Shown here: positions 1 to 38,076 of the stretch, in pieces | How positions within the stretch are numbered: the first letter of the stretch is position 1 | Layout of the letters: each line of letters starts with the position of its first letter | Assembly: GCA_964426185.1 (NCBI GenBank) | Contig: CAYRPF010000006.1 | Coordinates: forward strand, 2,652-66,651 | Reading direction: 5' to 3' | Source of the DNA: an uncultured archaeon | GTDB taxonomy: Archaea; Asgardarchaeota; Lokiarchaeia; Sigyniarchaeales; Promethearchaeaceae | DNA: 64,000 nucleotides | Translations under genes and position numbers: made by a program | Notes under the pieces: model-generated | Seen by the model: the letters and a program-made list of their open reading frames with translations, nothing else | Told to the model about the DNA's origin: nothing | The model's database searches: none

Positions 1-624
1 TTCAACAGTTAAATCTTCCAAAATAGGCTCAATTAGGTAATTTATCTTCATTCCAATATTGGAAAGAACCGCTATTATGATTTTCTCTCCCTTATGAAAT
101 CTAATTTCAATATTTTCTGCTCGGATTAAGTTTAAACCTTTTTTCCACCCCATTCGATTGATAAATAAGTGAATTGCACTAAATAATCCAGAAACTAAAT
201 TCTGATCTATTGAATCCTGATCTGGCTTTCCATAGAATTTAAAATGATATAAACATAGCCCAGAGGGAGAGAATATGTAAATTTCTGGAATTTCAATAGA
301 ATCTGGAAGGATTAGTGGAAGAGAAACATTCTCCTGCGATTCATCAGATAATCGAGTAATAGATTTTGTATCAGAAGATAAGGATTTTTGGCCATTTAAA
401 GGAATAACGGAAAGTGAATTTTCTTGCTCTGTTGCAAATAAAGATTTTATATAGGTAAGATATTCCATATATTCTTTCATTTCTGCAATATTTAGGGTAA
501 TTTCTGCTTGTCTAAGAATAAATTTTGGCTCTTCTCCATCATTTTCAACTGTAGTAATTTCAATGGGAGAAAGTTTTGAATCATGAATTTTCCAATGGGT
601 TATTTTTTGCTTATTTATCTCCAA
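1..624 (-). CDS. Partial CDS (C-terminus runs off the window): hypothetical protein with a longin/roadblock-like alpha-beta domain
   Basis: Absent from the ORF track because it has no stop in the window. My manual minus-strand translation from TTG at 624 stays open to position 1 (208 codons): LEINKQKITHWKIHDSKLSPIEITTVENDGEEPKF...IYIFSPSGLCLYHFKFYGKPDQDSIDQNLVSGLFSAIHLFINRMGWKKGLNLIRAENIEIRFHKGEKIIIAVLSNIGMKINYLIEPILEDLTVE. The strand-strand-helix-strand-strand pattern resembles longin/roadblock (MglB-like) folds. The start codon is uncertain; there are in-frame ATGs downstream. Confidence 0.45.
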   Translation of the reverse strand, partial: MEINKQKITHWKIHDSKLSPIEITTVENDGEEPKFILRQAEITLNIAEMKEYMEYLTYIKSLFATEQENSLSVIPLNGQKSLSSDTKSITRLSDESQENVSLPLILPDSIEIPEIYIFSPSGLCLYHFKFYGKPDQDSIDQNLVSGLFSAIHLFINRMGWKKGLNLIRAENIEIRFHKGEKIIIAVLSNIGMKINYLIEPILEDLTVE

Positions 625-10263: not shown

Positions 10264-11154
10264 TTAATTATCTTGCACGCCCAGTTGGGTAATTAACTGC
10301 TTTTTTTGCGTCTCGACATCCCGTGAAAGACCGAATGTGTCGGCAAACTGATCAGTTGTAAATAACTCAGAAGATCGACCCTTCTTTCGCGCCTCAACAT
10401 AACCCCGGTCAATTAAAAATTTAACATGCTCATATGCTGTGGAACCACGCAACTTAACCAAAGTCGATTTCATCAAAGGTTGTTTTAAGGCAATAATAGT
10501 TAAGGTTTTCAGAATTGCATCGGGAATTAATCCTCCACTAGCGAATTTTTTCACTTTGGGCGTATATTCTGGCTTAATTTGCAAGCTGTATTTATCTTGA
10601 ATATGGACAATTTCTAACGCAGTTGGGCGCATTAAATAATCCATAGCTAATTCATCTAGTAATTTTTCCAATTCCCTTTTTCGGATATCGGTTTTAGTGC
10701 TTAATTCTTCAACAGAAACAGGTCTACCTGCAACAAAGAGTGCTCCTTCAACCACATTTTTCAAATGGATATAGGCTTCTTCTTCATCGCTCATGGGTGC
10801 AATATCTGCATTTTTTTTTTCAAGAGAATCTTTTTCAGAGCTAATTTCTTTGGTTTCTTGGCCAGATCGTTCATTCAATATCTCACGAATCAAAGTTTCA
10901 CCCGTTTTTACATCCTTAACTGCTTCAGTGTCTTTATCCATGAATTCCGTGTTTTCATTCTCTGTTACAGATTTTGATTCCATCATTTCTGAATCTTTTT
11001 CGATTTCCAAATTATTTAATTCAGAAATTTCTTCATTCCCCACACTTTCTCCAAGTTCATCTTCCAATTCTTCCAAGTCGGAAAGAATTTCCTCGTCCAA
11101 ATCAGAATCATCTTGCTTTTCCAATAGCTCCTTCTGTTCGGGTTTTTTTTCCAT
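10264..11154 (-). CDS. scpB: Segregation and condensation protein B (ScpB) with an acidic N-terminal extension
   Basis: EGALFVAGRPVSVEELS plus tandem winged-helix-like regions; sits directly downstream of scpA and smc. The N-terminal roughly 125 aa are D/E/S-rich. Confidence 0.82.
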   Translation of the reverse strand: MEKKPEQKELLEKQDDSDLDEEILSDLEELEDELGESVGNEEISELNNLEIEKDSEMMESKSVTENENTEFMDKDTEAVKDVKTGETLIREILNERSGQETKEISSEKDSLEKKNADIAPMSDEEEAYIHLKNVVEGALFVAGRPVSVEELSTKTDIRKRELEKLLDELAMDYLMRPTALEIVHIQDKYSLQIKPEYTPKVKKFASGGLIPDAILKTLTIIALKQPLMKSTLVKLRGSTAYEHVKFLIDRGYVEARKKGRSSELFTTDQFADTFGLSRDVETQKKQLITQLGVQDN

Positions 11155-11187
11155 TTTTTTCCCTCGATTTTGATTTATTTGTGAATT

Positions 11188-12336
11188 CTAAAATTCTAAG
11201 CTTGTTTGATCAATGAGTTTAATCATTAAAGGCGCTTCAGTATCCTCTTGGTGCAAAATAATTTTACTTAATGAAGCCAAAAATAACATTTCTTCGAATG
11301 TTTGAATATATTTGACTTTCTTCTCTAATATTTTAAGCGAATTATCTTGATAAATCATATTTTTAAAATAATCCATTGAAACAGTGCGATTTGGTGGATT
11401 TTCCATTCGAATAATTTCAACTAATTGACGATGGCGGCGTTTTAAACGTTCCTCAATGGTTTCTTCACTTCCTGTAATATGCTTTAATATTTCTGCTGGT
11501 AATCGCCCCTTACCACGCTTTTTAACTTCTTTCTCGCGTTTTGCCATTTGCTGTTCTCGACGTATTCGAAGTTTTTCCCTTTTTTGCATTGTTTCAATAA
11601 TTGCGCGGCGCATTGCTCCGAAGAGTTCTTCTGAAGTAGCAATTTTCCGGGCTTCTCGTAGTGGTTGAGCGATAGGTTTTGGAATTTGCCTACGAATCCG
11701 TTCCCGCATTTCAGCTTTCTGGATTTCTTCTTCTTGTTTAATAACTCCAGTAATTTTAGAATGGTATAATTGGGCTGAAGAGTAAATTGCCAAGCCGGAG
11801 ATACGAAAATCGATTAATTCTTCTTCGACCATTTTCGAAACGAAATCTTCAATCAACGATGAAAGATCAAATTTAGTAAAATCCACTGTTTTCGCTAAGT
11901 CGGGGTCTAGGAGACTACGATAAGGTTCTTCCAGCCACCATTTCTTGATTTGAGAGATTTTTTCTAATTCTTCCTCCATTACATCTTTCTCTTCTAAATC
12001 CTCACCAACAGAGATCACTTCTTTTATTTTTGGTTCTGCAGGAGTCCTTTTTTCTTTAGGTTTTTTAGTGGTTTTTTGTGATTTTCTCGTTTGCGATGTT
12101 GTTGTCTTTGATGGTTTAGCGATTTTTGCATTTGTTACCTCTAATGGTTTTTGTTTTGAGATTGTTGAAACTTTTGATTTCGTCGATTTTTTAGATTTGG
12201 TTAATTTTTTTTTAGATTTTGACACACTACTCTTTTTTTTGCTCGACTTTTTACGTGAGGTTCCTTTTCGAGCTGAGGATTTCTTTGAACTAGTCTTTTT
12301 ATTTCTGGGTTTTTGAATTGTTTTTTCTGTTGTCAC
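11188..12336 (-). CDS. scpA: Segregation and condensation protein A (ScpA, kleisin) with a basic N-terminal extension
   Basis: ScpA-like core (FDLSSLIEDFVSKMVEEELIDFRISGLAIYSSAQL; C-terminal winged-helix region). The first roughly 105 aa are K/S/T-rich low complexity. Lies between smc and scpB. Confidence 0.8.
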   Translation of the reverse strand: MTTEKTIQKPRNKKTSSKKSSARKGTSRKKSSKKKSSVSKSKKKLTKSKKSTKSKVSTISKQKPLEVTNAKIAKPSKTTTSQTRKSQKTTKKPKEKRTPAEPKIKEVISVGEDLEEKDVMEEELEKISQIKKWWLEEPYRSLLDPDLAKTVDFTKFDLSSLIEDFVSKMVEEELIDFRISGLAIYSSAQLYHSKITGVIKQEEEIQKAEMRERIRRQIPKPIAQPLREARKIATSEELFGAMRRAIIETMQKREKLRIRREQQMAKREKEVKKRGKGRLPAEILKHITGSEETIEERLKRRHRQLVEIIRMENPPNRTVSMDYFKNMIYQDNSLKILEKKVKYIQTFEEMLFLASLSKIILHQEDTEAPLMIKLIDQTSLEF

Positions 12337-12362
12337 TCACGGTTCCTCCTATTCCTCTAATC

Positions 12363-15300
12363 TTAATTCTGATCGGGAGTATCTTTTACCAACTCCACAT
12401 TCGTATCAAAATCCTCTCTTTCCTTTTCTTCTTCAAGATTAACTGTAAAAATATCGGTAATTCCGTCATTCATTGCAACCCCATAAATCCGATCTGCATT
12501 AGTGATATTTTCTTCTCGATGACTAATGACTAAAAATTGAGATTGTCTGGCATATTCTTTGATTACCATCGAAGTTCGATAAACATTTGGACCATCGAGA
12601 GCTGCATCTATTTCATCCATAATGTAAAATGGAGCGGGATAAAAGTTTTGGATTGCAAAAATAAAAGAAAGGGCAACCAATGTCTTTTCTCCGCCTGATA
12701 AAATGTCCAGCGATGAAATTTTCTTTCCTCTTGGTCTGGCTTCAATGGTTATTCCACCTTCAAAAGGATGGGCTGGATTTTCGAGAATCATTTTAGCGGA
12801 ACCGCCTGGAGATAGTTTTTGAAACACCGAACTAAACACCCGATTAATTTCGTGATATGCCTTCATGAAATTCCGCGTTTTTTCCAACTCAATACGGTCA
12901 ATAGAATCCAAAATAGCTTTACGCTCTCGTTGGAGAGTTTGCCGACGCATATCAATTTCATCCCAGCGTTCTTTGACTTCATCGTATTCTTCAATGGATT
13001 TTAAGTTTACTGGCTCTAAGGCTTTCTTTTCAGTGTTAGCGGTTCCAATTTTCTGATTTAATGTTTCTTCATTTAAATCATCTGTCACTGGTGGTAAGGT
13101 GCCGTAATCTTTTGATTTTTCAAAAAGTTCATCAATTTTTTCTTCTACTACAATTTTACGAGTTTCTAATCCGTTGAATTTGGCATTATTTCGTGATAAA
13201 TCCGCATTCAATTCACCTAGTTCATCTCGGAGCGATTTCTGTTTTTCCCAAGAAGCATTTTTTTGACCTTGAAGATCTGTCAATATTTCAATTTGTTTTA
13301 ATCGCGATTCTTCAAGTTTTGTAATTTTATCGGTTATAGATTTAATTAATTCTTGAAAATCGGCAATTTTATCTCCTAATTCACCCTCTTCGTCCTTAAG
13401 TTGTTCAATTTCGCCTTCCCGGGCCTTCATTTGAACTTGCTTATCCAACTTCTTTTCCAAAGCCTTAATTTGATTGCTAATTTCTTTAGACTGTGCTCTT
13501 AATTCTTTTTCTTTTGATTCTAATGACTGTCGTGCAGTTTGATGTTCGGCAATGAGTTTATTTTTCTCTTCAATTTGACTTTCTAATTCATGAATTTGGT
13601 TCTCCAATTCTTCATTACTCTTAGTATTTTCAGCAATTTTCTCGGTAGATTCGGTAATTTCTATTTCTAATGCTTCAATATCGGAAATTATTTTTTGAAC
13701 ATTTTGCAAATCCTTTATTCGACCGTTGACCTCACCCAGTTTATCCGATTCTAAGTCAATTTGGGCTTGTAGATCGGTTCTCACATCATCAGCCTTAGCT
13801 CTTTTCTCCTTAACTTCGGAAATTTTGGCGAGAATTTCATCAATTTCTTTTTGTACTTTTTCACTTTGAGTAGATAGATCTTGAATATTTTGGTTTTTTG
13901 TCTCAATTTCTACTTGTAATTTCTGCTGTTCTTCAGTTGCATTATCAATATCGTCCAATAGTCGCTTAACATTACTTAAACTATTTAAATCGTCCACAAT
14001 TTGTGCCAATTCTTCTGATTTCTCGTCAATCAGGCTCTGTAAGTCTTTTGAATCTTTCCAAAAATTTTCTGAAGATTGCTTCAATTCAGTTAACTTTTTG
14101 CTAATAGATTCAATTTCCTCTTTAATTTGACTCGCTTTGGTTGATTTTTCCTCAAATTCTTTTCTATTTGTTGAGATTTTAGATTCCAAATCATTAATTT
14201 TCTTTGTTAAGGCAGAGATTTGAGAGTTTGTTTGATTCAATTCTTGTTGTTTTTGCTCTAAATGGGCAGTAATTTTTGTAAATTGAACTGAAGCCTTAGA
14301 ATATCCTTCTGCTTGAGCGGAGATAGCTGTATTGAGATCTTCCAAAGCACGATAATGCTCAGAAGTATCTGCAACAGCCACAGCTTGAAGTGCTACCCTT
14401 ATTGAATCGAATTTATCAGTAAAATCTTGAATAAAACCATCAAAATTCGCCGTGGATTCATTTAATGCTTCATCACTAGCTTCTTGAACCATTTCATTTA
14501 ACTGAATTAAAGGTTGTTCTGCATTTTCAATCAACAATTTTAAAGTATTAACCGCAAAAGAGAGTTGTTCTTGAATTTCTCGGGGTTGATCAGGTGTCAT
14601 TTCAGAAATTTCTTCAATCGACCGAAGCATATCGGTAACATCGAGCACAAATGCTTTAAAAACCTTGCTGGATTCATCAATGGCAACTTGGCTCACATTT
14701 TGAATGTCTGATTTAATATCGCCTGCAGATCGGTCAATATTCAGAATAAGATTAGTGAGATTATCCAGAACAGAGTTTAATTCTACCTGGGTTTCGTTAT
14801 GTTCTGCTTCCTTTTTATCAATGGTTTCCTGCAGTTTTTCCCTTTCCTCTTTCATATGCTCTATTTTTTCACTGAAATTATCAAGTTGAGCTTGTAATTT
14901 AGTTTGTTCAGCGGATAGAGCGGCAATTTCTTTTTGTAGATTATCGTGAATAATTTGAATATGTTGTTGCTGACGTTGGCTGGAATGAAGATCTGTTTCT
15001 GCTGTTTTAAGTTCTACCCCTATTCCAGTAAGTTTCTTTTCTAAGTCTCCTAATTCCCCTTCTAATGCACGCCTTTTTAATTCAAATGACTCTTGCTTGG
15101 TTTGACTGCGTTTTTGTTCCTCGTTGGCAGAGTTTAATTGAGATTTTAAATCTTTGACTTGGTCACCAATTTTTTTTTCTTTAGATCTTAGGATTTTGAT
15201 TTGATCTTCCACAGCTTGCCCTTTAGTTAATTTTTCGTATTCTTTTTGAAGAGTGTTCTTTTTTGATTCCAGATCTTCGATTCGTTTTTTGATTAAATTT

Positions 15301-16826
15301 ATTTCTGCACCAGTTGAAGAGACTGCTGCTTGAATATCTGATTGAGATTTGGCAACCGTGTCTCTTTGTTTTTCTAATTTTAGAATTTCTTCATCTAATT
15401 GTTTTTGGAGGTTTTTTTGTTCAATAATAGATTGCTTAAGTTTGGTAATTTGATCTTGAATAGCTTTTGCTTCGGTATTGGCTTGTTCCATGGCCTGTTC
15501 TATGCTTTCTGCATCTTTTTGTAGTTTTTGTAAATCTTTATCTAATTGAGATTTTCTTTTTTCGTTCTTTTTGATAGATTTCTCAAGAAGCTTAATTTCA
15601 GTAGTTAAAGCTTTACTGTCTTGTTTAATCTTAGAAATTTCTTTGTTTATTTGAGCCTTTTCGGCGTTAATATCAGTGATGATTTGTTCTTCTTCTTTTT
15701 GTTTTACTTTATTTTCTTCAATAAGTCCTGCATTTTCATCAAGTGCTTGTTGTACTCCATCAATTTCTGTCTTAGTGCGTGCTATCAAATCATCAAAAGT
15801 TTGACCTTCTTCTAATTTCTCTTGAAGTTCTTCAAGTTTGATTATATTTTGTTGAAGCCGTTTTAAATTTTCTTCCGTGGCCTTGAGAGTTGCTTCTTTG
15901 GCAGAAAGTTCTGCTTTTTGAGCGGTAATTTCTTCATCTAATTTTGTTTTTTCAGTTTCTTGAACTTCAATATCTTCTTCTAATCCCTTTAAAAATAACG
16001 CTTCTGCTTCAATTTTATCTTTCTGTCGTTGAATTCTGTTTTTTAAGTCTTCAATTACCAATTGGGTAGATTCGATTTCTGCATTAATATCATCCTCTTC
16101 CAAGCGCATTTTATGAATTTTTAGTGCGATTAACTGAGCGTTGAATAAATTTACTTTATTATCTAGTTCTTTCCAACGAAGAGCATCATTTTTTTCTTTT
16201 TCAACTTTTTTCAATTGAGTAGAGACTTCTTTAAATATCGCCTCAAATTGACCTAAATCTTTATCTGCTTTCTCTAGCTCTTTCAATGTCTTATCTTTCA
16301 TTTCGTCATATTTACTTAATCCAATCAACATTTCAATAAATTCACGTCTTGCATTGGAACTCATATGAGTTAATTCTACGATTTTTCCTTGAAGAACAAA
16401 TTGATTAGAGCCATCAGGATCAATATTTGCTTGAGCAAGAGCATTTAAAATGGCCGTTCGGGTACTTGCCTTGCCTTGGATACGGTAACCACTAGTTCCA
16501 CTGCGTTTTATCCATCGCGACACTTTGAATTCATCAGAATCGCTGGGAAAAACCCGATCTTTATTATCAAAAACAATTTCTACTTCTGCACGAGTTGCTG
16601 GTTTAACTTTTTTAGATCCTGCGAAGATTAAATCAGTTAATTTTGTGGCGCGCATGGTAGACTTTGCCAATCGACCGAGAGCAAAACATAAACCATCAAT
16701 TACATTAGATTTTCCATTTCCATTCGGTCCCACAATGCATGTAAACCCTTTAGCAAGATTGACTGATACAGTGCGATTTCCGAAAGATTTGAACCCAGTC
16801 ATCACGACACGTTTTATATAGGTCAT
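12363..16826 (-). CDS. smc: SMC-family chromosome segregation ATPase, unusually long, no recognisable hinge
   Basis: N-terminal Walker A head FTCIVGPNGNGKSNVIDGLCFALG. C-terminal head has signature LSGGEKTLVALSFIFA and Walker B FYIMDEIDAALD. Between them lie about 1200 aa of coiled coil. It forms an operon with scpA and scpB. Confidence 0.9.
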   Translation of the reverse strand: MTYIKRVVMTGFKSFGNRTVSVNLAKGFTCIVGPNGNGKSNVIDGLCFALGRLAKSTMRATKLTDLIFAGSKKVKPATRAEVEIVFDNKDRVFPSDSDEFKVSRWIKRSGTSGYRIQGKASTRTAILNALAQANIDPDGSNQFVLQGKIVELTHMSSNARREFIEMLIGLSKYDEMKDKTLKELEKADKDLGQFEAIFKEVSTQLKKVEKEKNDALRWKELDNKVNLFNAQLIALKIHKMRLEEDDINAEIESTQLVIEDLKNRIQRQKDKIEAEALFLKGLEEDIEVQETEKTKLDEEITAQKAELSAKEATLKATEENLKRLQQNIIKLEELQEKLEEGQTFDDLIARTKTEIDGVQQALDENAGLIEENKVKQKEEEQIITDINAEKAQINKEISKIKQDSKALTTEIKLLEKSIKKNEKRKSQLDKDLQKLQKDAESIEQAMEQANTEAKAIQDQITKLKQSIIEQKNLQKQLDEEILKLEKQRDTVAKSQSDIQAAVSSTGAEINLIKKRIEDLESKKNTLQKEYEKLTKGQAVEDQIKILRSKEKKIGDQVKDLKSQLNSANEEQKRSQTKQESFELKRRALEGELGDLEKKLTGIGVELKTAETDLHSSQRQQQHIQIIHDNLQKEIAALSAEQTKLQAQLDNFSEKIEHMKEEREKLQETIDKKEAEHNETQVELNSVLDNLTNLILNIDRSAGDIKSDIQNVSQVAIDESSKVFKAFVLDVTDMLRSIEEISEMTPDQPREIQEQLSFAVNTLKLLIENAEQPLIQLNEMVQEASDEALNESTANFDGFIQDFTDKFDSIRVALQAVAVADTSEHYRALEDLNTAISAQAEGYSKASVQFTKITAHLEQKQQELNQTNSQISALTKKINDLESKISTNRKEFEEKSTKASQIKEEIESISKKLTELKQSSENFWKDSKDLQSLIDEKSEELAQIVDDLNSLSNVKRLLDDIDNATEEQQKLQVEIETKNQNIQDLSTQSEKVQKEIDEILAKISEVKEKRAKADDVRTDLQAQIDLESDKLGEVNGRIKDLQNVQKIISDIEALEIEITESTEKIAENTKSNEELENQIHELESQIEEKNKLIAEHQTARQSLESKEKELRAQSKEISNQIKALEKKLDKQVQMKAREGEIEQLKDEEGELGDKIADFQELIKSITDKITKLEESRLKQIEILTDLQGQKNASWEKQKSLRDELGELNADLSRNNAKFNGLETRKIVVEEKIDELFEKSKDYGTLPPVTDDLNEETLNQKIGTANTEKKALEPVNLKSIEEYDEVKERWDEIDMRRQTLQRERKAILDSIDRIELEKTRNFMKAYHEINRVFSSVFQKLSPGGSAKMILENPAHPFEGGITIEARPRGKKISSLDILSGGEKTLVALSFIFAIQNFYPAPFYIMDEIDAALDGPNVYRTSMVIKEYARQSQFLVISHREENITNADRIYGVAMNDGITDIFTVNLEEEKEREDFDTNVELVKDTPDQN

Positions 16827-16941: not shown

Positions 16942-19686
16942 ATGAGCAATTCTTCCAAAATTCTTCTTCCTTATATACTCAAACCAGAAGGAAAGATAGA
17001 ACCACTTGATATAGAAGATATTCCTTCAAAATTAATTTCTGTTAATATTTTGTATTTTTATCACTATGAAAAGAAAAGATTATATATTTGGATTGGTAAA
17101 AATGCAGGAAAGAAATTAAAGCAGACAATACCTACTGCAGAAGAAATAATTTTAAAAAAAAATCCAGATATCACAATTATTCGCCATTTTACGGTAGATG
17201 AAGGAAGCGAAACACATGATTTTTGGCAAGATACCGCTCTTAATCCCGAAAATATTAGAAAAATTCAGCAAAAATGGTCTGAATTCCGATTAGATCAATA
17301 TGCTTTGTTAGATAAACTTCGAATCAATATGACATCTGCTAAAAATACTGGTGATTTTGAAAACGCAATAAATTATATTGAACAAATACTTAAAGTTGCA
17401 GAAGAAATTTATGATTGGGATTTGATCGATGAATTCACACAATTACGTGATCAAATCCTTCGAGTAAAAGATTTGAGATCTCGAAAAGATGAAATCAAGC
17501 GCGAAATTCCCCATAAAATTGCCAAGCTTGATAAATTAATGGCAGAAAATGAGGTTATAAAAGCCCATGATTTAGCCGTTGAAATTCAAGAATATTACTC
17601 AATTTTATTTAATGAACCCATTCCCCGTAAATTTCAAAGATCATTAGACTCAGAAAAAATGTTGTACGATGAATATATTAGAATAAAGAAAGATATTAAT
17701 GATTTACAAGAGCGGTTTAATGAGTTCTTACCGGAAAGAAATTTAAGAACTCTCTATCGCATTGGTAAAAAACTCGTCCAATTAAATGAAAAATTTGACG
17801 ATATTACGATTGATCAGTCAATGATGGAACAAATTTCCTTAATTGAGGCACAATACAAAGAATGGGAAAAATCAGAAAGAGAATATAGAAATAATATAAC
17901 CACCTTAACATCAGCATACCAACGAGCAAAAAGTAACTATGAATTTGATGAGGCTCAGCAACATTTGGAGAAAATAATAGAATTAATTCAAACTTCAGAT
18001 CATAAAAGTGAATTAGAACAATGGGAAACTGAAATATCGAATTTGAAAGAATTAAAAAAACAATGGGAGCTGCAAAAAGAAGAAGCTAAAAAGAAAAAGT
18101 TAGAAAATCGTGATAAAATTAAGCAAATGCAAGCAGAAATTGAACAACAATTACATAATAGAAATTTCCCAGAAACCTTTGCTTCCGTGGAAAAACTCTA
18201 TCTTTTTGCCTCACAAACTCATGACGAAGAAATTGAAAAAGAAATTGCCAATTATCGGAAAGAAATTAATGAAAAAATAACAAACTTAAAGTTGTTAGAT
18301 ATATTATTGAAAAAAATTTCAGAATGGGAAGAATCTTTCCCTGAATTGAAAAAAACCAAGCAGTATGATACAATTTTAAGCGATCTCAATATATTCCTTT
18401 CTGATGAAGCCATAAATTATTCACTCGAACATAAAGCCAGATTATCAGAAATCAAATCGTCCATCGAAGAATTGAAGGAAAAATACTCGAAGAATGTAGC
18501 GCTCTATAATCGCTTATCTACAGAAATCAAAGAGAATGAAAATAAAGAGCAATGGATGGCTTTAACCCGTAATGCTAAACGCATTCAAGAAATCCTTCCT
18601 GAAATTGATAAGGAAAATGAGCACATAAAGTTTCAAGAAATAGAAAATTTAGCCAATCAAAAAATTAAGGAGAAAGAGAAGAAGAAAGAAGAAGAATTGG
18701 CTCAATTATTAAATAAAGCGAAAGAAATCGAAAATATCATCCAGAGTGAAAAAAAAATACTCCCATTGGTGGAGGATTTATCATTAGAAGACATCTTACC
18801 GAATTTATCTACCGATGTCAACGAAATGCTTACTCAAATTGAAAGCGTATTAGATAAGCAGCGCGTTGAGGTTAAGGATGATATGGAAAGTTCAATGCTG
18901 TTAACCAGTGCCTCGGGCGAAACTATGGAGATCACTGCAAAAATACAAGTTTCAATGGAGTCTGCTTCACTTGATAAGGAAACTTTGGAGATCTCCCCGT
19001 TTACGAAATTTAAGGCAAGTTCTGTGTTGGAAAATCCATTCCACGACGCAATTTCTGAGGTGATTATTGAAGATATTATTCCCTATAACTTTGAAATTTC
19101 TGATATAAACGTGGAGGGGGGCGATAATTTCGAAAAACCCGAAGAACAATTACACAAAGACGGCTTCGTCTTAAAATGGAAATTAAATAACATTCCCGCC
19201 CAAAACTCGGTTAAAATTAATTATGAATTACGTAAAAGAGTCTCACGAACTATTCTAATTCCCTTGGAAACGCAATTAAAGGTAATAAAAACCCATACGA
19301 GTATCAAAGATTATTCTCCAGAAGGTTTGTACGATGTAACCATGTTTTTCAAAAACAAATTTGCAAAGTCAGTCATCGGCGTTGTTATTGAAGATATAAT
19401 TCCAACCTTTTATCATTTCCAAATTAAACTTCCTAAGGATGCACTACCTGCTTCTCAAGTAGAACAACCAATTGGAGCACTTATTAAGTGGAATTATCAC
19501 GAAATTCTTGAAAATAAGGAATTGAAACATCAATATCGTCTGTTAAATTTGGCTCAATTTGAAAATTTAAAGATTTTAGTGGATAAATTGACACGTGAAG
19601 CTTATAATACACTTGAAAGAGGCGATATCGATAAATCTTTGGCAACTTATCAAAAAATTGTCAAAAAATTGCGAAAGTTTACCTAA
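16942..19686 (+). CDS. Large coiled-coil protein with an N-terminal gelsolin/villin-like domain and two C-terminal DUF11-like beta-sandwich repeats
   Basis: The N-terminus LYFYHYEKKRLYIWIGKNAGKKLKQTIPTAEEIIL...IIRHFTVDEGSETHDFWQ matches the gelsolin-repeat pattern (hhhWhG..a....aa.....l..... v.EG.Es..F). A K/E-rich coiled coil of about 550 aa follows. The two C-terminal repeats begin VIIEDIIPYNFEISD... and VVIEDIIPTFYHFQI.... Confidence 0.55.
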   Translation: MSNSSKILLPYILKPEGKIEPLDIEDIPSKLISVNILYFYHYEKKRLYIWIGKNAGKKLKQTIPTAEEIILKKNPDITIIRHFTVDEGSETHDFWQDTALNPENIRKIQQKWSEFRLDQYALLDKLRINMTSAKNTGDFENAINYIEQILKVAEEIYDWDLIDEFTQLRDQILRVKDLRSRKDEIKREIPHKIAKLDKLMAENEVIKAHDLAVEIQEYYSILFNEPIPRKFQRSLDSEKMLYDEYIRIKKDINDLQERFNEFLPERNLRTLYRIGKKLVQLNEKFDDITIDQSMMEQISLIEAQYKEWEKSEREYRNNITTLTSAYQRAKSNYEFDEAQQHLEKIIELIQTSDHKSELEQWETEISNLKELKKQWELQKEEAKKKKLENRDKIKQMQAEIEQQLHNRNFPETFASVEKLYLFASQTHDEEIEKEIANYRKEINEKITNLKLLDILLKKISEWEESFPELKKTKQYDTILSDLNIFLSDEAINYSLEHKARLSEIKSSIEELKEKYSKNVALYNRLSTEIKENENKEQWMALTRNAKRIQEILPEIDKENEHIKFQEIENLANQKIKEKEKKKEEELAQLLNKAKEIENIIQSEKKILPLVEDLSLEDILPNLSTDVNEMLTQIESVLDKQRVEVKDDMESSMLLTSASGETMEITAKIQVSMESASLDKETLEISPFTKFKASSVLENPFHDAISEVIIEDIIPYNFEISDINVEGGDNFEKPEEQLHKDGFVLKWKLNNIPAQNSVKINYELRKRVSRTILIPLETQLKVIKTHTSIKDYSPEGLYDVTMFFKNKFAKSVIGVVIEDIIPTFYHFQIKLPKDALPASQVEQPIGALIKWNYHEILENKELKHQYRLLNLAQFENLKILVDKLTREAYNTLERGDIDKSLATYQKIVKKLRKFT

Positions 19687-19746: not shown

Positions 19747-19954
19747 GATTATAGTTAATTGGGATGCTTTCAGCGATGTCGATGAAGATAAAAGAACCTT
19801 GTTGAAAATCTACTGGCGATTTTTACAGAATATTCAGAAAACTTGATGAATTTTCAAGGAAATGTCGAAATATTTGATAATTTTAAGAGAATTCTTTTAT
19901 CTATGGATCTCGATATGATATAACTAATCCAAATAATCAAATCTCTAATGTTAA

Positions 19955-30988: not shown

Positions 30989-31078
30989 GAAATTTAAGCA
31001 CTATTTCTTTAAAAAATGCGTTGTTGGAAGATCAATAAAAAGAAAAAGAAAAAAAGGATTATAATCAATGTAATAATC

Positions 31079-34000
31079 ATGAATTTTTTGGATTTTTGGA
31101 AAGTATTCAGTATTCCTACCACTTTAAATGCTTGGACAATTGGTTTATTAATTTTCTTTGTGGGCAGTGTTATTTTGGGCTATATTATGATGGCATCTCA
31201 AGTAAAAATAGTTAAGAAAGAATTTTGGAAGGGAACAGATACCTTAAAATGTTTTATTTTTGGGTTTTTCTTTGGAAGTGCTTTAACCGTTATTGGAACT
31301 ACAATTATTACCTTCATTTTTGATTTAAACGATTTAGGATATCATGATCAAGCCATTCTACTAATCCTTCCAATGGTATTTTGCTTAATTTTTGTTAGCA
31401 TATATCCTCTTATTGAATTTTTATTTATGGCTCATTTTTCACATTATATATCCACTACACCTTTCCAAAAACCATTTGAATCTCTGATTAAAAAATTTCG
31501 AAAACCTTGGAGTTATATTATCGCGGTTATTTTATATTTCGTCGTTATGGTACTTCCAATTATTATTATGGTTGCGGGATTTCAAATTAAATTCATTATC
31601 GCTTGGTTAAGTTGGCAGTTAATATATCCCATGATTATCATTCTTTACTATGCATCCGTTGGTTATATCATAGCCTTTGGAATTTTTACTATTAGTATTC
31701 CATATTTACCGCGATCAACTTTTCTTCATCATGATAAGAGTAAACGAGCTGTGCAAGAATTTTTCCGAGATCCTGGTACTTATTTTACCTATTTCACCTT
31801 ATTTTATTCTTATATTTATTTCATTTACCGAACCTATGCTACTCTCACGAGATTTGATCTAAATTATGTTGCTTATTATCCTCCATGGTATAACGTTGAT
31901 TGGTCTATTCCTATTTCGTTAGCATTTGCAGTTACTGCATATTATCATCGATATTGGAAAAGAAAAGTTAAATCCTCCACACAATCTATTTTATTTTCCA
32001 CTTTTTTAATCGCGGCAATGGGAGTAAACATTATGTTGAATTACTTAATTTCCCGTCCATTTGTATTTCAAGAATTATTCGAAAAATGGGTTGTTACTGC
32101 TGAACTTTATGATGTACGCGGTTTCAACATATTGGGAAATCCCGTTGGAGTTTATACGGAGTTAAATTTGATTGGTGTGATCGAAGAATTGATGCTTTTC
32201 GTGATTATCTCTTATTTTTTCTTCATTCAAAAAAATCATAAAGCTATTCGTGATACATTCTTTGGAACGGTGACTTCTTCCGAAGAAAAATTCAATCCTA
32301 TTCCTGCATTCAACATGATTCGTTTTCAAGACGAATTTGAACAGCAATTTGCGTACGAATCTTTAGAACGAATGTACACGCGGATTCCTAATAAGCGTGG
32401 CTATGATTTCATTCAAAACAGATTTAGATTACCTCTTTTTGATGCACTTTCAGATCGTTCTCATAGATTTGGATATTATTGGAGTCAAAAACTTCTCACA
32501 AAAATAATGTCTGTTTATCCTATGAGGATAGCACCATTAGTCGAAAATGGATTACAATCTCCCAACAGCGACTTAATTTCTTCGATTTTTCAATGTTTCA
32601 CCCCTGAAACTTATCTATGTTTGAAAAAAATCGATGAAAAATTAATTCTATTTCACCTTAACGGTAGAAATTTAATTCTTAAACAACAAGCTCTAAAGAT
32701 TTTGCTGTTAAAATACACCAATGAAGAAGATTCTCAACTATCTCCATCAGATGAGCTATTAGAAGCTGCTCAACGGCTTCTTCTATTTCCTGATTATAAT
32801 ATCCAGAGTATGACTCTTCGTCTATTAGCGAACTTCCCAGAACAGGTTGATCATTCTATCTTTCTTTCCCGATTGAATGATCCCATTCCAGTTATTCAAA
32901 ATTCTGTAGCGCATATTGCAGGCGAAATTGCTAAGGATGAGATCAACTCATTAAGTATTCCAAAATTAATTGAAATGGCTTCGGATATTAATCCTAATAT
33001 TCGTGTAAAAGTTTTAGACACATTAGCAAAAATGGGGAATTTTGAAAAAAACAACATCCCAATTGAAATCTTCAAAGATAATATGTTTGATCCAAATGAT
33101 AAGATTCGACAAGTCTCCTTTCATGGATTGAGGGCTTATCTTCAAGAAAAACCCTACGCAATTTCAGTTAATTATTTATTGGAAATAACAGAAAATACTG
33201 AAATTGAAACCCAAAAATACCTTATCACTTTATTCCCCCCAATTTGGAAGCAAAATCCTTCTAAAATTTTGTCAATTTTGAAAAAATATTTAAAAATGCC
33301 TGAGCACAGCCTTTCTCGTTTAGCTCAAGAGCAAATTCTTAAAATGGCTCAACAAGATCCGCGATTTCTGGTGTCCGAATTGATATATGAATCTGAAACT
33401 GAAAGTATTTTGACGCGTGGGAAAATTGCCCAAACAATTCTTCAAATCTGTTTAAAATTTCCTAAGCAAACTATCCCTCTTTTGATTAAAAACCTCTCTT
33501 CTACAAATACTAATGCAAAAATTAATGCTGCTCGTGTATTAACAGATTTTTCCAAAAATCATACTCTTAACATCCCATTAAAAACTTTAGTTAATATTTG
33601 GAGAAATGAACCATCAGAAAACATAAAAAATGAATTAATTCCATTAATTAAGTATGTTGGGTTAAAAGAGCCTAATAAAATTGCACAATTCATTGAAGAT
33701 TTTAGTAAAATTTATGCTAAATCAAGTAAAGCTTTAAAACTATCCATTGCAAAAATGTTTTCCATTTTATCGGCTAAGAATCCAAACCTCATTCCTTTGA
33801 AATTGGTTGAGAAGATGGTCGAAGATCCAGAATCTTCCATCCGAGAACAAGGCTATAATATTTTAAGTAAAATTGAAGACAAAAATTTGAAAAAAAGGAT
33901 TAATATTTTGAAAAAGGGGTTGAAAGAAGAAGATCTGAACATTAAGAAAAATGTAATTCAAGATTTAATGAAATTGGCTTTGCACTTAAACGACTCCAAG

Positions 34001-34516
34001 CTATTTACCAACATTCTCAAATTACTCGATGATTCAAATAAATGGACTAGAAAAGCAGTGTGGGATGCTCTTGCATTGTTGGAAAACCAGTCGAAAAATG
34101 TATTAGATGTAAAGAAGATCTTGAGCAATATTGATCTAAATACTGAAGTAGAAGAAGTTATTTATTCCTTTTTAAAATGGGCAGGAATGTTAAGTAAAAA
34201 TGAATTTGAGCAAATATTTCCTTATATATTGAAATTAATGGAACATGAAAAGGAATCAATTCGGACTGCTGCAATTTCAACTTTAGTCAGATTATCGGAA
34301 AATTTAAAATCCGATCAGATAATTCCACGGTTGCTAAGTTATCTTTCAGATGAAACTCCAGTTAGACTGGAAGAATCGGTGGTTTTAGCACTAAACCGGA
34401 TTGCAAAATATGAGAAAAAAGAAATTAAAGAGCGAGTGATTAGATTATTAAGTATTCGAGCTCACAACACACAGAATAAAATTTTCCAACATGTTTTAGC
34501 AGATTTAAAAAAATAG
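31079..34516 (+). CDS. Polytopic membrane protein fused to a long HEAT/ARM-repeat solenoid
   Basis: The first roughly 390 aa hold about 10 hydrophobic helices. The remaining roughly 750 aa show repeated HEAT-like units (DINPNIRVKVLDTLAKMG, DPNDKIRQVSFHGLRAY, DPESSIREQGYNILSKI, DSNKWTRKAVWDALALL, HEKESIRTAAISTLVRLS). Start taken at ATG 31079 (MNFLDFW) rather than the poly-K leader at 31016. Confidence 0.7.
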   Translation: MNFLDFWKVFSIPTTLNAWTIGLLIFFVGSVILGYIMMASQVKIVKKEFWKGTDTLKCFIFGFFFGSALTVIGTTIITFIFDLNDLGYHDQAILLILPMVFCLIFVSIYPLIEFLFMAHFSHYISTTPFQKPFESLIKKFRKPWSYIIAVILYFVVMVLPIIIMVAGFQIKFIIAWLSWQLIYPMIIILYYASVGYIIAFGIFTISIPYLPRSTFLHHDKSKRAVQEFFRDPGTYFTYFTLFYSYIYFIYRTYATLTRFDLNYVAYYPPWYNVDWSIPISLAFAVTAYYHRYWKRKVKSSTQSILFSTFLIAAMGVNIMLNYLISRPFVFQELFEKWVVTAELYDVRGFNILGNPVGVYTELNLIGVIEELMLFVIISYFFFIQKNHKAIRDTFFGTVTSSEEKFNPIPAFNMIRFQDEFEQQFAYESLERMYTRIPNKRGYDFIQNRFRLPLFDALSDRSHRFGYYWSQKLLTKIMSVYPMRIAPLVENGLQSPNSDLISSIFQCFTPETYLCLKKIDEKLILFHLNGRNLILKQQALKILLLKYTNEEDSQLSPSDELLEAAQRLLLFPDYNIQSMTLRLLANFPEQVDHSIFLSRLNDPIPVIQNSVAHIAGEIAKDEINSLSIPKLIEMASDINPNIRVKVLDTLAKMGNFEKNNIPIEIFKDNMFDPNDKIRQVSFHGLRAYLQEKPYAISVNYLLEITENTEIETQKYLITLFPPIWKQNPSKILSILKKYLKMPEHSLSRLAQEQILKMAQQDPRFLVSELIYESETESILTRGKIAQTILQICLKFPKQTIPLLIKNLSSTNTNAKINAARVLTDFSKNHTLNIPLKTLVNIWRNEPSENIKNELIPLIKYVGLKEPNKIAQFIEDFSKIYAKSSKALKLSIAKMFSILSAKNPNLIPLKLVEKMVEDPESSIREQGYNILSKIEDKNLKKRINILKKGLKEEDLNIKKNVIQDLMKLALHLNDSKLFTNILKLLDDSNKWTRKAVWDALALLENQSKNVLDVKKILSNIDLNTEVEEVIYSFLKWAGMLSKNEFEQIFPYILKLMEHEKESIRTAAISTLVRLSENLKSDQIIPRLLSYLSDETPVRLEESVVLALNRIAKYEKKEIKERVIRLLSIRAHNTQNKIFQHVLADLKK

Positions 34517-37089: not shown

Positions 37090-38076
37090 TTGTGGAAACC
37101 CGTGAATCAACCTTCAAAAACTAATGAAGAAGTTACTTCTTCCGAAAAAATCGAACAAGCAATTCAATTAGGAATGAAAGAATTAAAAGAAACATATAAA
37201 CATCCAAATACACCTCTAATTCAAGATCAGAGGGCAGAAATTTTAGCTCAATTGGGTGTTCTCTTATGGAAAAAAGATGATTTTAGGGAAGCACGAAAAT
37301 ATTTTCTTATGGCATTAACCGAGTACGAATCGCTTAAAGACCAATTCAAAATTGCAAATGTAAAGAGTAGTTTAGGTTCTCTGTTTATCCAAATGGGTGA
37401 ATATTCTTTGGCTCTTAGAAATAATTTAGAAGCATTGGAATATTGGAACACTAAAAATTTCCTAAATGAACGGATAGCGACTTTACAAAATGTGGGTATT
37501 TGTTATCTTCAAATGAAAGAAGATATAAAAGCTGCAGATTATCTCTTAAAAGCCTTACAGATGGCCGTTTATCTTGAAGATGAAAGCCAATTTGCAAATA
37601 CAATTCAAGTTTTATTAGAATATTATGAAAAACAACAAAGATATGACATGTTGCTAGAATTAAAACGCAAAGCTTTAGACTTTTGGACTACTTTAAACCT
37701 TCCATTACGACAATTTAAGACCCTTATTGATTTAGGTGTGATTTGTCAAATTTTAAACGAATTTAAGACTGCGTTGAATTACTTTAAACAAGCTTATAAT
37801 ATTGCCTATAATATGGCTGATTTAGAAAAAATGTATCTTGCAGAAGGATTTATCGGTGAATGTTATGTAAAACTCGGGGATATCTCCCAAGCGAGAAAAA
37901 TTTATCTTCAAACATTCAAATTGGCTGTCTACTTAAATGTATTTTCCGATCATCAAGAAGCAGTAGATTCTATGCGACTTTTACTCCTTACATTGGGTTT
38001 TTCTCGCAAAGAACTCGATCATGAAGAAAAAAAAGCATTGTTTGAAGCTCAAAAAGATCATCCCAAAAAAGTTTAA
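37090..38076 (+). CDS. TPR-repeat protein
   Basis: Successive 34-aa helical hairpins carry the TPR signature (e.g. LGVLLWKKDDFREARKYFLMAL, LGSLFIQMGEYSLALRNNLEAL, VGICYLQMKEDIKAADYLLKAL, IGECYVKLGDISQARKIYLQTF). The start codon is non-ATG and uncertain. Confidence 0.75.
   Translation: MWKPVNQPSKTNEEVTSSEKIEQAIQLGMKELKETYKHPNTPLIQDQRAEILAQLGVLLWKKDDFREARKYFLMALTEYESLKDQFKIANVKSSLGSLFIQMGEYSLALRNNLEALEYWNTKNFLNERIATLQNVGICYLQMKEDIKAADYLLKALQMAVYLEDESQFANTIQVLLEYYEKQQRYDMLLELKRKALDFWTTLNLPLRQFKTLIDLGVICQILNEFKTALNYFKQAYNIAYNMADLEKMYLAEGFIGECYVKLGDISQARKIYLQTFKLAVYLNVFSDHQEAVDSMRLLLLTLGFSRKELDHEEKKALFEAQKDHPKKV

Follow-up and report, generated by a model that had tools for sequence, protein, structure and literature searches.

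A long-form Asgard gelsolin protein with TPR-like repeats and a conserved beta module is a probable actin-binding scaffold

Introduction

The gelsolins, profilins and lokiactin of Asgard archaea are central to ideas on the origin of the eukaryotic cytoskeleton. The gelsolins characterized so far are small forms only (ProGel, 1DGelX and 2DGel), and the 'domain X' of 1DGelX has been a black box. ProGel binds rabbit actin very weakly, with a Kd of 337 uM (PMC7444086). 1DGelX was described from Thorarchaeota SMTZ1-83 (Akil et al. 2020; PMC7444086) and has been counted in Loki genomes too (PMC9433394). The Thor protein is 35% identical to ProGel, co-migrates with actin and shows Ca2+-independent severing with a Kd of 7.7 uM, and the assignment of its domain X as a coiled coil is an I-TASSER prediction (PMC7444086).

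What, then, is encoded by a gene from an uncultured Promethearchaeaceae archaeon whose product was predicted to fuse a single gelsolin-like domain to about 550 aa of coiled coil and two DUF11-like beta-sandwich repeats, and so perhaps to tether actin filaments to another structure? The gene lies in a stretch of 64,000 nucleotides (GenBank assembly GCA_964426185.1, contig CAYRPF010000006.1, positions 2,652 to 66,651), which is called the window here. We asked whether the head is truly a gelsolin domain, what the regions behind it are, and what such a protein might do for its host.

Results

The open reading frame at 16942..19686 on the plus strand is real and conserved. It is present in the ORF listing as a complete gene, from ATG to stop, for a protein of 914 aa, and its closest relative, the syntenic orthologue in Ca. 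Harpocratesius repetitus (JAIZWK010000001.1), is also 914 aa long and 57% identical. The N-terminal string quoted in the original prediction is found at aa 32-96, and the motifs VIIEDIIPYNF and VVIEDIIPTFY are both there. The protein contains no Cys. Neither a TM segment nor a signal peptide is evident from hydropathy (maximum KD(19) = 1.17; no hydropathy window >1.6), and on this basis the protein is predicted to be cytoplasmic. Family members in the databases, where named at all, are always annotated as 'hypothetical protein'. A tRNA scan of the window found nothing.

When Pfam, NCBIfam and PDB sequences were searched directly with the 914-aa protein, its N-terminal part and its C-terminal part, only weak TPR matches and IpaD noise came back. 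A word-indexed homologue search yielded 2 matches only for the full-length query, its result being swamped by helical low-complexity candidates, and zero matches for the N-terminal query. The N-domain family was recovered only by an exhaustive HMMER search, which gave 76 representatives that carry the domain at the N terminus in almost every case. The resulting gelsolin-head family profile comprises 72 members and 123 positions, and includes a conserved helix that follows the gelsolin domain and leads into the first central repeat (aa 102-124, 17245..17313, plus strand; AF2 pLDDT about 90).

Three kinds of comparison, namely profile-sequence, profile-profile and structural, give good support to the conclusion that aa ~6-100 (16957..17241, plus strand) adopt the gelsolin fold and form a domain of the gelsolin superfamily. 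When the family profile is compared with PDB sequences, almost all matches are gelsolin-family chains, including villin (E 4.9e-8), adseverin (2.4e-5) and Loki 2DGel (1.6e-3). The profile also matches Thor ProGel (7c2f_B) at 4e-6, with profile positions 7-100 aligned to chain residues 5-93, end to end, and hhalign of the head against ProGel reports a probability of 96.2% with an E of 2.4e-9. The gelsolin-like N terminus, first recognized from the sequence alone, lies far beyond chance once the family profile is used. The same relationship is faint at the level of single sequences: the window protein alone aligns with ProGel at 30% identity over 66 aa (E 0.44).

The AF2 model of the head agrees with these results. 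It has a pLDDT of 92.4 and a pTM of 0.84, and its topology is b-b-a-b-b-A-b-a, with strands at residues 8-13, 19-21, 36-41, 46-51 and 81-86, a long helix at 57-73 and a short helix at 92-98. The long helix packs on one side of a mixed central beta-sheet and the short helix on the other. Foldseek finds 106 matches in the PDB at E<=1e-3; all 50 of the matches listed belong to the gelsolin superfamily with a probability of 1.0, and no Sec23/24 structure is among these 50. The model does move the start of the domain, which had been placed at about aa 30, to a first strand at about aa 6-8. The N-domain HMM matches the window protein at aa 5-121 only, and no second gelsolin copy was found. Taken together, the data support a head that is closest to Asgard ProGel and 2DGel and to eukaryotic gelsolin, villin and adseverin.

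Pfam profiles recognize this family poorly. PF00626, the profile by which the prediction was to be checked, does not match the window protein at E<=10, and among the relatives it gives sub-threshold matches in 7 of 72 (best E 1.3e-3), as with relative P0013 at 16.6 bits against a gathering threshold of 21 bits. The Pfam families Gelsolin, MPK1_gelsolin_C and DUF7904 match weakly in 7-14 of the 72 members.

Signature residues of gelsolin domains are nevertheless kept. The WxG signature is W50-I-G52, part of the 'DWG' motif that tells gelsolin from cofilin (10.1101/768580; PMC9433394), and 68-72 of the 72 members keep each of the four residues W50, G52, E90 and F94 (W50 in 72/72, G52 in 68/72). 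The polar position upstream of WxG is N35, a column occupied by N in 41 members, D in 13 and S in 10. A canonical Type-II Ca2+ site consists of an Asp in a strand and a Glu at the start of the long helix. In alignments to villin and gelsolin, the corresponding residues of the window protein are N35 and L59, and the Glu is absent throughout the family, the column being L, V, I or M in 72/72 members. In Thor ProGel, too, the aligned residue is not a Glu, as we read the hhalign alignment.

The central region had been taken for a coiled coil of about 550 aa, and this assignment does not hold. Self-comparison by hhalign reveals offsets of 66/130/200/270/400 residues with E values from 9e-13 to 1e-7, and repeat alignment resolves aa ~116-584 (17287..18693, plus strand) into seven tandem units of ~63-74 aa with bounds at aa 116-181, 182-248, 249-313, 314-387, 388-454, 455-521 and 522-584. 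There is no continuous heptad register, the best register shifting every ~30-60 residues; a 3.5-residue periodicity is not dominant; and prolines occur at irregular spacing (aa 190, 226, 228, 264, 410, 467 and 553). The repeat profile picks out the helix A/turn/helix B signature of PDB TPR proteins, each match covering 18 residues at only 5-7 bits, and Pfam TPR_8 matches aa 134-154 at E 0.0041 (17.6 bits, below the 25.7-bit cutoff). The period of ~66 aa differs from the 34 of TPR. The region is thus seven predicted helical repeats with a TPR-like core, and not a coiled coil.

The C-terminal part, aa ~604-914, is a conserved module comprising a duplicated beta unit and a helical hairpin, with an all-beta part that is confidently modelled. 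No other part of the 914-aa protein is as well conserved as this module, which is found also without any gelsolin head. The module begins with a linker (aa 604-690, 18751..19011, plus strand) defined by alignments and AF2 as a strand, a helix, a beta-hairpin (RVEVK...LLTSASGE) and a variable loop; in model numbering these are E6-11, H23-37, E44-53 and E58-66, with a low-confidence loop at 70-86. Two beta repeats follow, the first at aa 661-763 (18922..19230, plus strand; AF2 pLDDT above 90), which contains NPF.D...IIEDIIPYNFE and YELR.RVSRT, and the second at aa 772-867 (19255..19542, plus strand), which contains VVIEDIIPTFY and is likewise seen in the AF2 model. That these two repeats are a true duplication, as their paired motifs had suggested, is established by hhalign (probability 95.5%, E 1.5e-8). 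Invariant columns recorded for the first repeat are, in model numbering, D108, P111, E115, G138, W143, Y158, R163, S165, R166 and T167. The protein ends in the helical hairpin at aa 870-913 (19549..19683, plus strand; AF2 H267-289 and H293-310, model numbering), where Pfam TPR_6 matches weakly at aa 892-909 (E 0.095).

The module has no relative of solved structure. Foldseek against the PDB gives nothing at E<=1e-3, with TM values of 0.1-0.24 and rmsd of about 16-31 A, and the sub-significant matches (PCSK9, aminopeptidase N and AP2-mu) have TM below 0.25. Against a viral library there are marginal matches only, one of them a Tupanvirus DUF11 protein at E 8e-3. Arrestin/Vps26 and mu-homology-domain identities were weighed too but abandoned, as no such structure reaches a meaningful score, and the sole match of the module profile to PDB sequences, a G-gamma chain at E 0.024, is spurious. 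Membership in DUF11/CARDB also fails: PF01345 does not match the window protein at E<=10, its matches in 2 of 24 relatives are sub-threshold (E 5.7e-3 or weaker), and no curated threshold is reached. The resemblance lies in a tandem beta repeat of ~100 aa and in the motif order '...N.f....vvIeD.iP..y......G.l.W.l......Y.l'.

The arrangement of head, repeats and module recurs in Loki, Thor, Hod and other Asgard lineages, either fused or split into adjacent genes. In some paralogues the repeats and the C-terminal module are kept, but the place of the gelsolin head is taken by an unrelated domain or by a tail rich in Lys. Across 19 loci, the commonest neighbour is a gene for a TPR+longin or longin-only protein. 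It adjoins 11 of them, including that of the cultured Ca. Lokiarchaeum ossiferum (CP104013, about 3.742-3.747 Mb), and it does so in distant Asgard lineages and next to long as well as short forms, in many cases with an overlap or a gap of only tens of bases. The remaining 8 loci have no longin neighbour, and 3 of these (L007, L014 and L017) are contigs under 9 kb. A Ras-family GTPase is encoded nearby in 4 loci. The identity of the neighbour is marginal: its C-terminal ~130 aa match, by profile against the PDB, BET5 at 1.2e-3, MON1 at 0.076 and CCZ1 at 0.26, which makes it a putative longin-domain protein at E about 1e-3.

Downstream of the H. repetitus orthologue the TPR+longin partner gene is intact, whereas the window retains a relic. 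Specifically, tblastn and frame translation locate the last ~55 codons of a decayed TPR+longin gene, with two in-frame stops, at 19759..19923 on the plus strand. The 693-aa protein of locus L001 matches the window with 57% identity over 30 aa at 19831-19920, and the frame reads LGCFQRCR*R*KNLVENLL...NFQGNVEIFDNFKRILLSMDLDMI*. The longin-gene partnership, the fusion and fission pattern and this decayed gene just downstream had all escaped the first reading of the sequence.

That reading had drawn attention to the opposite flank, where a gene for a 1487-aa SMC protein lies 115 bp upstream in divergent orientation. The divergent neighbour and its 115-bp spacer are confirmed, but its significance does not extend past the closest relative: the adjacency occurs at 2 of the 19 loci only, those of the window and of Ca. 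H. repetitus, which are closely related genomes. The SMC adjacency is incidental.

Discussion

The likeness drawn earlier to the one-domain-plus-X form of Asgard gelsolin was apt. Like 1DGelX, the window protein has one N-terminal ProGel-like gelsolin domain that lacks canonical Ca2+ sites, followed by a helical extension. Relatives of ~347-355 aa carry the same N-domain family, 32-39% identical to ProGel, and the same type of TPR-like repeat behind it; matched to the published description by size and ProGel identity, these ~350-aa proteins are probably the 1DGelX class. The window protein, compared with Thor 1DGelX by description, is best read as a long-form relative of that class. It differs in being 914 aa rather than about 350 aa long, in having an X that consists of seven TPR-like repeats where the published X is a predicted coiled coil, and in carrying an extra conserved beta module of ~310 aa, known here from sequence and models.

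Other comparisons place the head more broadly. It shares the gelsolin fold and WxG with Thor ProGel (PDB 7C2F chain B) and with the Loki, Heimdall and Thor 2DGel proteins (7WHG, 7WHF and 7C2G), and superposes on ProGel with a Foldseek TM of 0.73 (normalised to ProGel). However, ProGel is a stand-alone domain of about 94 aa, 2DGel has two domains and binds Ca2+, and pairwise identities of either to the window protein are only about 20-30%. Eukaryotic gelsolin, villin, adseverin and CapG (PF00626) share the fold, W-x-G, the long helix and the E-x-x-x-F ending, and repeats of this type are the top Foldseek and HMMER-PDB matches of the head, but these proteins have 3-6 domains instead of one, and their Type-II Ca2+ Glu is a Leu here. 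By analogy only, the overall plan of an N-terminal actin-binding head, a helical-repeat rod or platform and a C-terminal interaction domain is reminiscent of alpha-actinin/spectrin and of filamin, the latter with C-terminal beta-sandwich repeats. The domains concerned (CH, spectrin repeats and Ig-filamin repeats) are unrelated, and no homology is claimed. The neighbour, in turn, can be likened by profile match, at marginal significance, to longin-domain GEF subunits (TRAPP Bet5/Sybindin and Mon1-Ccz1), although its longin domain is fused to TPR repeats or stands alone.

We consider it probable that the window protein is a cytoplasmic, modular actin-binding scaffold of the Asgard single-gelsolin-domain ('1DGelX-like') family. 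The gelsolin head would bind host actin (lokiactin) without Ca2+ control, as Thor 1DGelX does in vitro, and the helical repeats could serve as a spacer or interaction platform. Gene adjacency suggests that the C-terminal module may bind the longin-domain partner or one of that partner's paralogues, and thereby the 914-aa protein would couple actin filaments to a longin-based complex resembling small-GTPase regulators. The tether idea of the original prediction is still the best working model. Because the adjacent partner gene has decayed, the window copy would need a partner encoded elsewhere, or would act alone as an actin regulator or tether.

Would such a head have to bind actin at all? Gelsolin-fold domains of Sec23 and Sec24 do not, and the head here could likewise be a protein-protein interaction module. 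The protein as a whole would then belong, as a subunit, to a longin/TPR/small-GTPase complex that has nothing to do with actin. The conserved longin-domain and TPR neighbours, with Ras-like GTPases at some loci, and the missing canonical Ca2+ site are consistent with this reading, and since paralogues replace the head while keeping repeats and module, the head is exchangeable. We nonetheless regard it as unlikely. In both sequence and structure the head comes nearest to gelsolin domains that do bind actin and to Asgard ProGel/2DGel, with no Sec23/24 among the 50 structural matches listed. Moreover, actin severing in vitro has been shown for Thor 1DGelX (PMC7444086), whose class probably falls within this family.

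The opposite reading is that actin is the whole story, with the protein a stand-alone regulator that severs, caps or bundles filaments, its repeats and module adding only side-binding or oligomerisation and its longin neighbourhood a coincidence. In the proposal of Akil et al., 1DGelX owes F-actin side binding to its domain X (PMC7444086). The 8 loci that lack the neighbour, and the window, where the partner gene was lost and the 914-aa gene stayed intact, would also fit. We find this improbable, because no other neighbour is as conserved as the longin or TPR+longin gene over such distant lineages, with long and short forms alike, and because the most conserved part of the protein is a module that occurs also where the gelsolin head does not.

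The 115-bp spacer shared with Ca. H. repetitus might have suggested a chromosome-associated coiled-coil protein acting together with the divergent SMC-ScpA-ScpB operon. This is very improbable, and an SMC-linked function is rejected because the synteny is confined to the closest relative; moreover, the middle of the 914-aa protein does not form one continuous coiled coil, and no DNA-binding domain was detected in it. Finally, a surface protein or adhesin with DUF11/CARDB-like repeats, to which the motif order, the weak PF01345 matches in relatives and the marginal Tupanvirus match could point, is scarcely credible and is rejected for want of a signal peptide or TM segment, with the unmatched DUF11 profile, the lack of a significant PDB fold match and a gelsolin domain of cytoplasmic type also against it.

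Returning to the actin-binding scaffold, its recurrent longin-gene adjacency may point to a connection of actin with regulators of the trafficking type. A bolder proposal, which we offer as possible but doubtful, is that Asgard archaea possess a previously undescribed multi-part module in which gelsolin-headed scaffolds, encoded beside TPR+longin or longin-only proteins and sometimes Ras-like GTPases, physically join actin filaments to a GTPase-regulator platform that is longin-based. Such a module would foreshadow, in prokaryotes, the connection of the actin cytoskeleton to the membrane-trafficking machinery of eukaryotes, and the coupling would be made by the C-terminal module, as a new fold family.

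For the family itself, the analysis resolves X, as it occurs in the window protein and its ~350-aa relatives, as a predicted TPR-like repeat array, reveals a long form with an additional, highly conserved beta module that lacks a relative of solved structure, documents gene fusion and fission between head, repeats and module, and finds that, in Loki, Thor, Hod and other lineages, the gene most often next door is one for a putative longin-domain protein. If the proposed coupling is true, these genes would offer a directly testable handle on whether a wiring between actin and trafficking-type regulators predates eukaryogenesis. If it is false, they still define a new architecture within a family of actin regulators.

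A gelsolin-type domain at the N-terminus of a 914-residue Asgard protein

The open reading frame (ORF) at positions 16942-19686 (+) runs from ATG to stop and encodes 914 amino acids, among them every sequence string quoted in the original prediction. The key insight of that prediction, a gelsolin-like head on a long multidomain Asgard protein, is confirmed by profile searches, hhalign, AlphaFold2 modeling and Foldseek comparison. As a single sequence, the window protein has no match to the Pfam Gelsolin family at E ≤ 10, the profile originally proposed for comparison, and none in NCBIfam or PDB; a word-indexed homologue search with residues 1-125 likewise found nothing. An exhaustive HMMER search with a two-sequence alignment of residues 1-130 recovered 76 cluster representatives (E ≤ 1e-3), of which 25 reached E ≤ 1e-10. 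Nearly all have the domain at the N-terminus, in proteins that range from 81 to 1417 amino acids.

A trimmed 72-sequence alignment served for what we count as four independent tests of domain identity. When the family profile was searched against all PDB sequences, 13 of the 14 chains matched were members of the gelsolin superfamily, including villin (4.9e-8), adseverin (2.4e-5), Loki 2DGel (1.6e-3), Heimdall 2DGel and gelsolin. Thor ProGel (7c2f_B) matched at 4e-6, with profile positions 7-100 aligned to chain residues 5-93 of 94, and comparison of the profile with the ProGel sequence by hhalign gave 96.2% probability (E 2.4e-9, 86 columns). The AlphaFold2 model (pLDDT 92.4, pTM 0.84) has the order strand-strand-helix-strand-strand-long helix-strand-short helix, followed by a long exit helix. 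Foldseek comparison of this model with PDB yielded 106 matches at E ≤ 1e-3, and all 50 of the matches listed are gelsolin-family domains with probability 1.0. These include adseverin A3, villin D6, gelsolin G1-G6, CapG, fragmin and 2DGel, and the TM score to ProGel is 0.73 when normalized to the target. The gelsolin fold is set apart from cofilin by a WxG signature (10.1101/768580; PMC9433394), which in the window protein is W50-I-G52; the tryptophan is invariant and the glycine is present in 68 of 72 family members. The closing E-x-x-x-F (E90 and F94) is also kept in 68 of 72. We are close to certain that the head adopts a gelsolin fold.

The alignment column that corresponds to the Type-II Ca2+-binding glutamate of villin and gelsolin is hydrophobic in all 72 members, and our reading of the hhalign alignment is that ProGel also lacks a glutamate there. 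Because of these substitutions, the gelsolin heads of this family are predicted to be Ca2+-independent, a property that experiments have established for 1DGelX (PMC7444086). Scans of individual members give only sub-threshold Pfam matches (Gelsolin in 7 of 72, MPK1_gelsolin_C in 14 and DUF7904 in 14), and thus the domain is overlooked by current annotation pipelines. All named cluster members are annotated as 'hypothetical protein'.

Helical repeats and a duplicated beta module

The remainder of the original description stood only in part: its C-terminal duplication is real, and its coiled coil and DUF11 assignment are not upheld. In the region described as 550 residues of coiled coil, the best heptad register shifts every 30-60 residues, prolines intervene at irregular spacing, and no dominant 3.5-residue periodicity was found. 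Profile self-comparison of seven orthologues instead reveals off-diagonal alignments offset by about 66, 130, 200, 270 and 400 residues (E 9e-13 to 1e-7), which define seven repeats of 63-74 amino acids across residues 116-584. The core consensus, n-k-n-F-d-k-A-i-e-l-l-e-k-i-i-e-i, matches the TPR helix A/turn/helix B signature in PDB entries such as consensus TPRs, a kinesin-light-chain-like TPR (1e-4), SPAG1 and PP5, each over 18 residues at 5-7 bits. Pfam TPR_8 matches residues 134-154 below threshold (E 0.004). On the basis of the self-comparison and these short matches, we describe the central region as an array of TPR-like helical repeats whose period is about 66 residues.

Conservation is highest in the C-terminal ~310 residues, where relatives are 26-44% identical across Asgard metagenomes and the invariant motifs include NPFDD, IEDIIPYNFE, YDLRRRVSRT and KTH. 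An AlphaFold2 model of this C-terminal module from 24 sequences (pLDDT 90.9, pTM 0.85) begins with a strand and helix, continues through a beta-hairpin and about 15 more strands, and ends in two long helices. Self-comparison of the module profile aligns residues 661-763 with 772-867 (95.5%, E 1.5e-8), an internal duplication that bears out the two repeats noticed earlier. The DUF11 assignment of these repeats is not supported, since the window protein has no such match, 2 of 24 relatives match only at E 5.7e-3 or weaker, and Foldseek comparison of the model with PDB gives nothing at E ≤ 1e-3 (TM 0.1-0.24). A viral structure library yielded only marginal matches, among which is a Tupanvirus 'DUF11 domain-containing protein' (8e-3). 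We thus describe the module as a beta structure that is predicted with confidence and has no solved relative in PDB. A distant Ig/DUF11-like origin is possible for each half. The protein has no transmembrane segment, signal peptide or cysteine, and is thus soluble and cytoplasmic.

A probable long-form relative of 1DGelX

Three Asgard gelsolin architectures have been described by Akil et al.: ProGel, 1DGelX and 2DGel (PMC7444086). 1DGelX joins one gelsolin domain to a 'domain X', whose nature was unknown and which was predicted to be a coiled coil (PMC7444086). Two to three 1DGelX genes are reported in Loki genomes (PMC9433394), and eight gelsolin-like proteins in Ca. Lokiarchaeum ossiferum (PMC9834061). 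Members of our N-domain family with ~347-355 residues share 32-39% identity with ProGel across the gelsolin core, agree with 1DGelX in implied size, and have an extension built from the same TPR-like repeat as the window protein. They therefore probably represent the 1DGelX class, of which the window protein would be a long-form relative. The gene is a new architecture among Asgard single-domain gelsolins. Full-text literature searches turned up no account of domain X as a set of repeats, of the C-terminal module or of the longin neighborhood described below.

For Thor 1DGelX, Akil et al. measured a Kd of 7.7 uM with rabbit actin and found Ca2+-independent severing of filaments (PMC7444086). 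By analogy, the head of the window protein would bind actin as ProGel and 1DGelX do, a prediction that we consider likely. One of the two main rival readings, that the head has a gelsolin fold and is not an actin binder, as in Sec23/24, seems improbable to us.

Distribution and gene organization

The C-terminal module occurs in at least 17 N-domain representatives (643-1417 amino acids), which makes the head-repeats-module architecture a family trait. A genome scan recovered 15 loci, all Asgard, from Ca. Harpocratesius repetitus, several Promethearchaeota MAGs, Thor-, Hod- and Hermodarchaeota, and the cultured Ca. Lokiarchaeum ossiferum, whose orthologue has 847 residues. ORF analysis distinguishes three arrangements. 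Fused genes are present in the window and at loci L005, L007 (two in tandem), L008, L009, L011, L012, L015 and L018. At L006, L013, L014 and L016, a 297-434-residue gelsolin plus helical ORF lies immediately upstream of a helical plus C-module ORF. A second C-module gene lacking the gelsolin head lies directly downstream at L009, L011 and L015. In head-less paralogues the same repeats follow either a Lys-rich tail or a ~100-residue domain of unrelated type; the family is therefore modular, and its head exchangeable.

The closest relative is a 57% identical, 914-residue 'hypothetical protein' from the Lokiarchaeota MAG Ca. H. repetitus, where the gene order is the same (scpB, kleisin-position ORF, and smc divergent from the gene) and DNA identity is about 71% across the locus. 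GC content is ~32% around the gene, within an AT-rich window. The smc gene (12363-16826 (-), 1487 amino acids) lies 115 bp away, an adjacency that among 19 loci is unique to these two and therefore incidental. Its product is unusually long and retains the SMC_N head halves, with no Pfam SMC_hinge match at E ≤ 1e-3. The kleisin (ScpA)-position ORF (11188-12336 (-)) has a Lys/Ser-rich N-terminus and no match in a Pfam scan; ScpB (10264-11154 (-)) is normal.

A recurrent longin-like neighbor

Unbiased clustering of flanking ORFs over 19 loci revealed one outstanding neighbor family, present at 11. It takes the form of a 549-693-residue protein in which TPR_12 scores above the Pfam threshold and which ends in a conserved domain of ~130 residues, or of a 138-146-residue protein that comprises this domain by itself. 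The gene is directly up- or downstream, sometimes overlapping, and members occur at L004, L005, L009, L011, L012, L018, L019, L020 and L021. The best PDB matches of the domain profile are to longins (TRAPP Bet5, 1.2e-3 over ~95 of 132 positions; Mon1, 0.076; Ccz1, 0.26), a marginal but coherent assignment. The ~350-residue gelsolin-repeat genes are also partnered, in clusters of a gelsolin-repeat gene, a repeat-only paralogue and a longin-like gene. In the loci examined the partner family is Asgard-specific, and extra longin-like paralogues flank L004 and L019.

In Ca. H. repetitus, an intact 693-residue partner follows the orthologue (10821-12902 of its locus, L001). In the 787-bp spacer downstream of the window gene, all that is left of the TPR plus longin gene is a pseudogene relic of its final ~55 codons, interrupted by two in-frame stops (19759-19923 (+)); about 2 kb has thus been deleted in this genome. 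No other clear longin ORF was found in the window. A partial ORF off the window start (1-624 (-)) has a weak longin-like profile match (E 1e-4), and positions 37090-38076 (+) encode a bona fide 328-residue TPR protein (TPR_12, 4e-22), which shows weak similarity to the TPR portion of the partner family and has no longin domain. Elsewhere in the window are a 1166-residue HEAT-repeat protein (31016-34516 (+)) with a weak Condensin2nSMC match (E 5e-4) and a class II (B12-dependent) ribonucleotide reductase-like protein (56946-59549 (+)) with leucine-rich-repeat matches at its C-terminus, an unusual combination.

At four of the 19 loci, a Ras-family (Ras/Rab-like) small GTPase is encoded no more than a few kb away from the C-module gene (L004 10980-11525, L012 12839-13366, L006 4364-5320 and L019 13419-13967), and the two proteins scanned match Pfam Ras at 6e-30 and 1.8e-38. 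At L020, a 203-residue, 2DGel-sized protein with a weak Pfam Gelsolin match (11936-12547) is encoded ~5 kb downstream of a short gelsolin-repeat, repeat and longin cluster, and gelsolin-family genes may cluster. Large uncharacterized proteins of about 575-1240 residues, with no Pfam match on record, are conserved upstream of gelsolin-repeat genes at three loci (L020 2530-5895, L021 545-4267 and L011 1322-6912).

Possible role of the tripartite protein

The analysis shows which domains the protein has, in what order and how well conserved they are, along with the fused and split gene arrangements and the neighboring genes; its role is inferred. The explanation we favor, with moderate confidence as a whole, would combine an actin-binding head with helical repeats that serve as a spacer or platform, and either the C-terminal module or the repeats would engage the longin-domain partner. 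The window protein might then link actin filaments with a longin-based complex akin to GTPase regulators, a putative coupling that we hold tentatively. The other main rival, a stand-alone actin regulator in a coincidental neighborhood, also seems improbable to us. The window gene adds an uncharacterized, conserved beta module to the Asgard single-domain gelsolins, and its genomic link to longin-domain proteins is potentially important.
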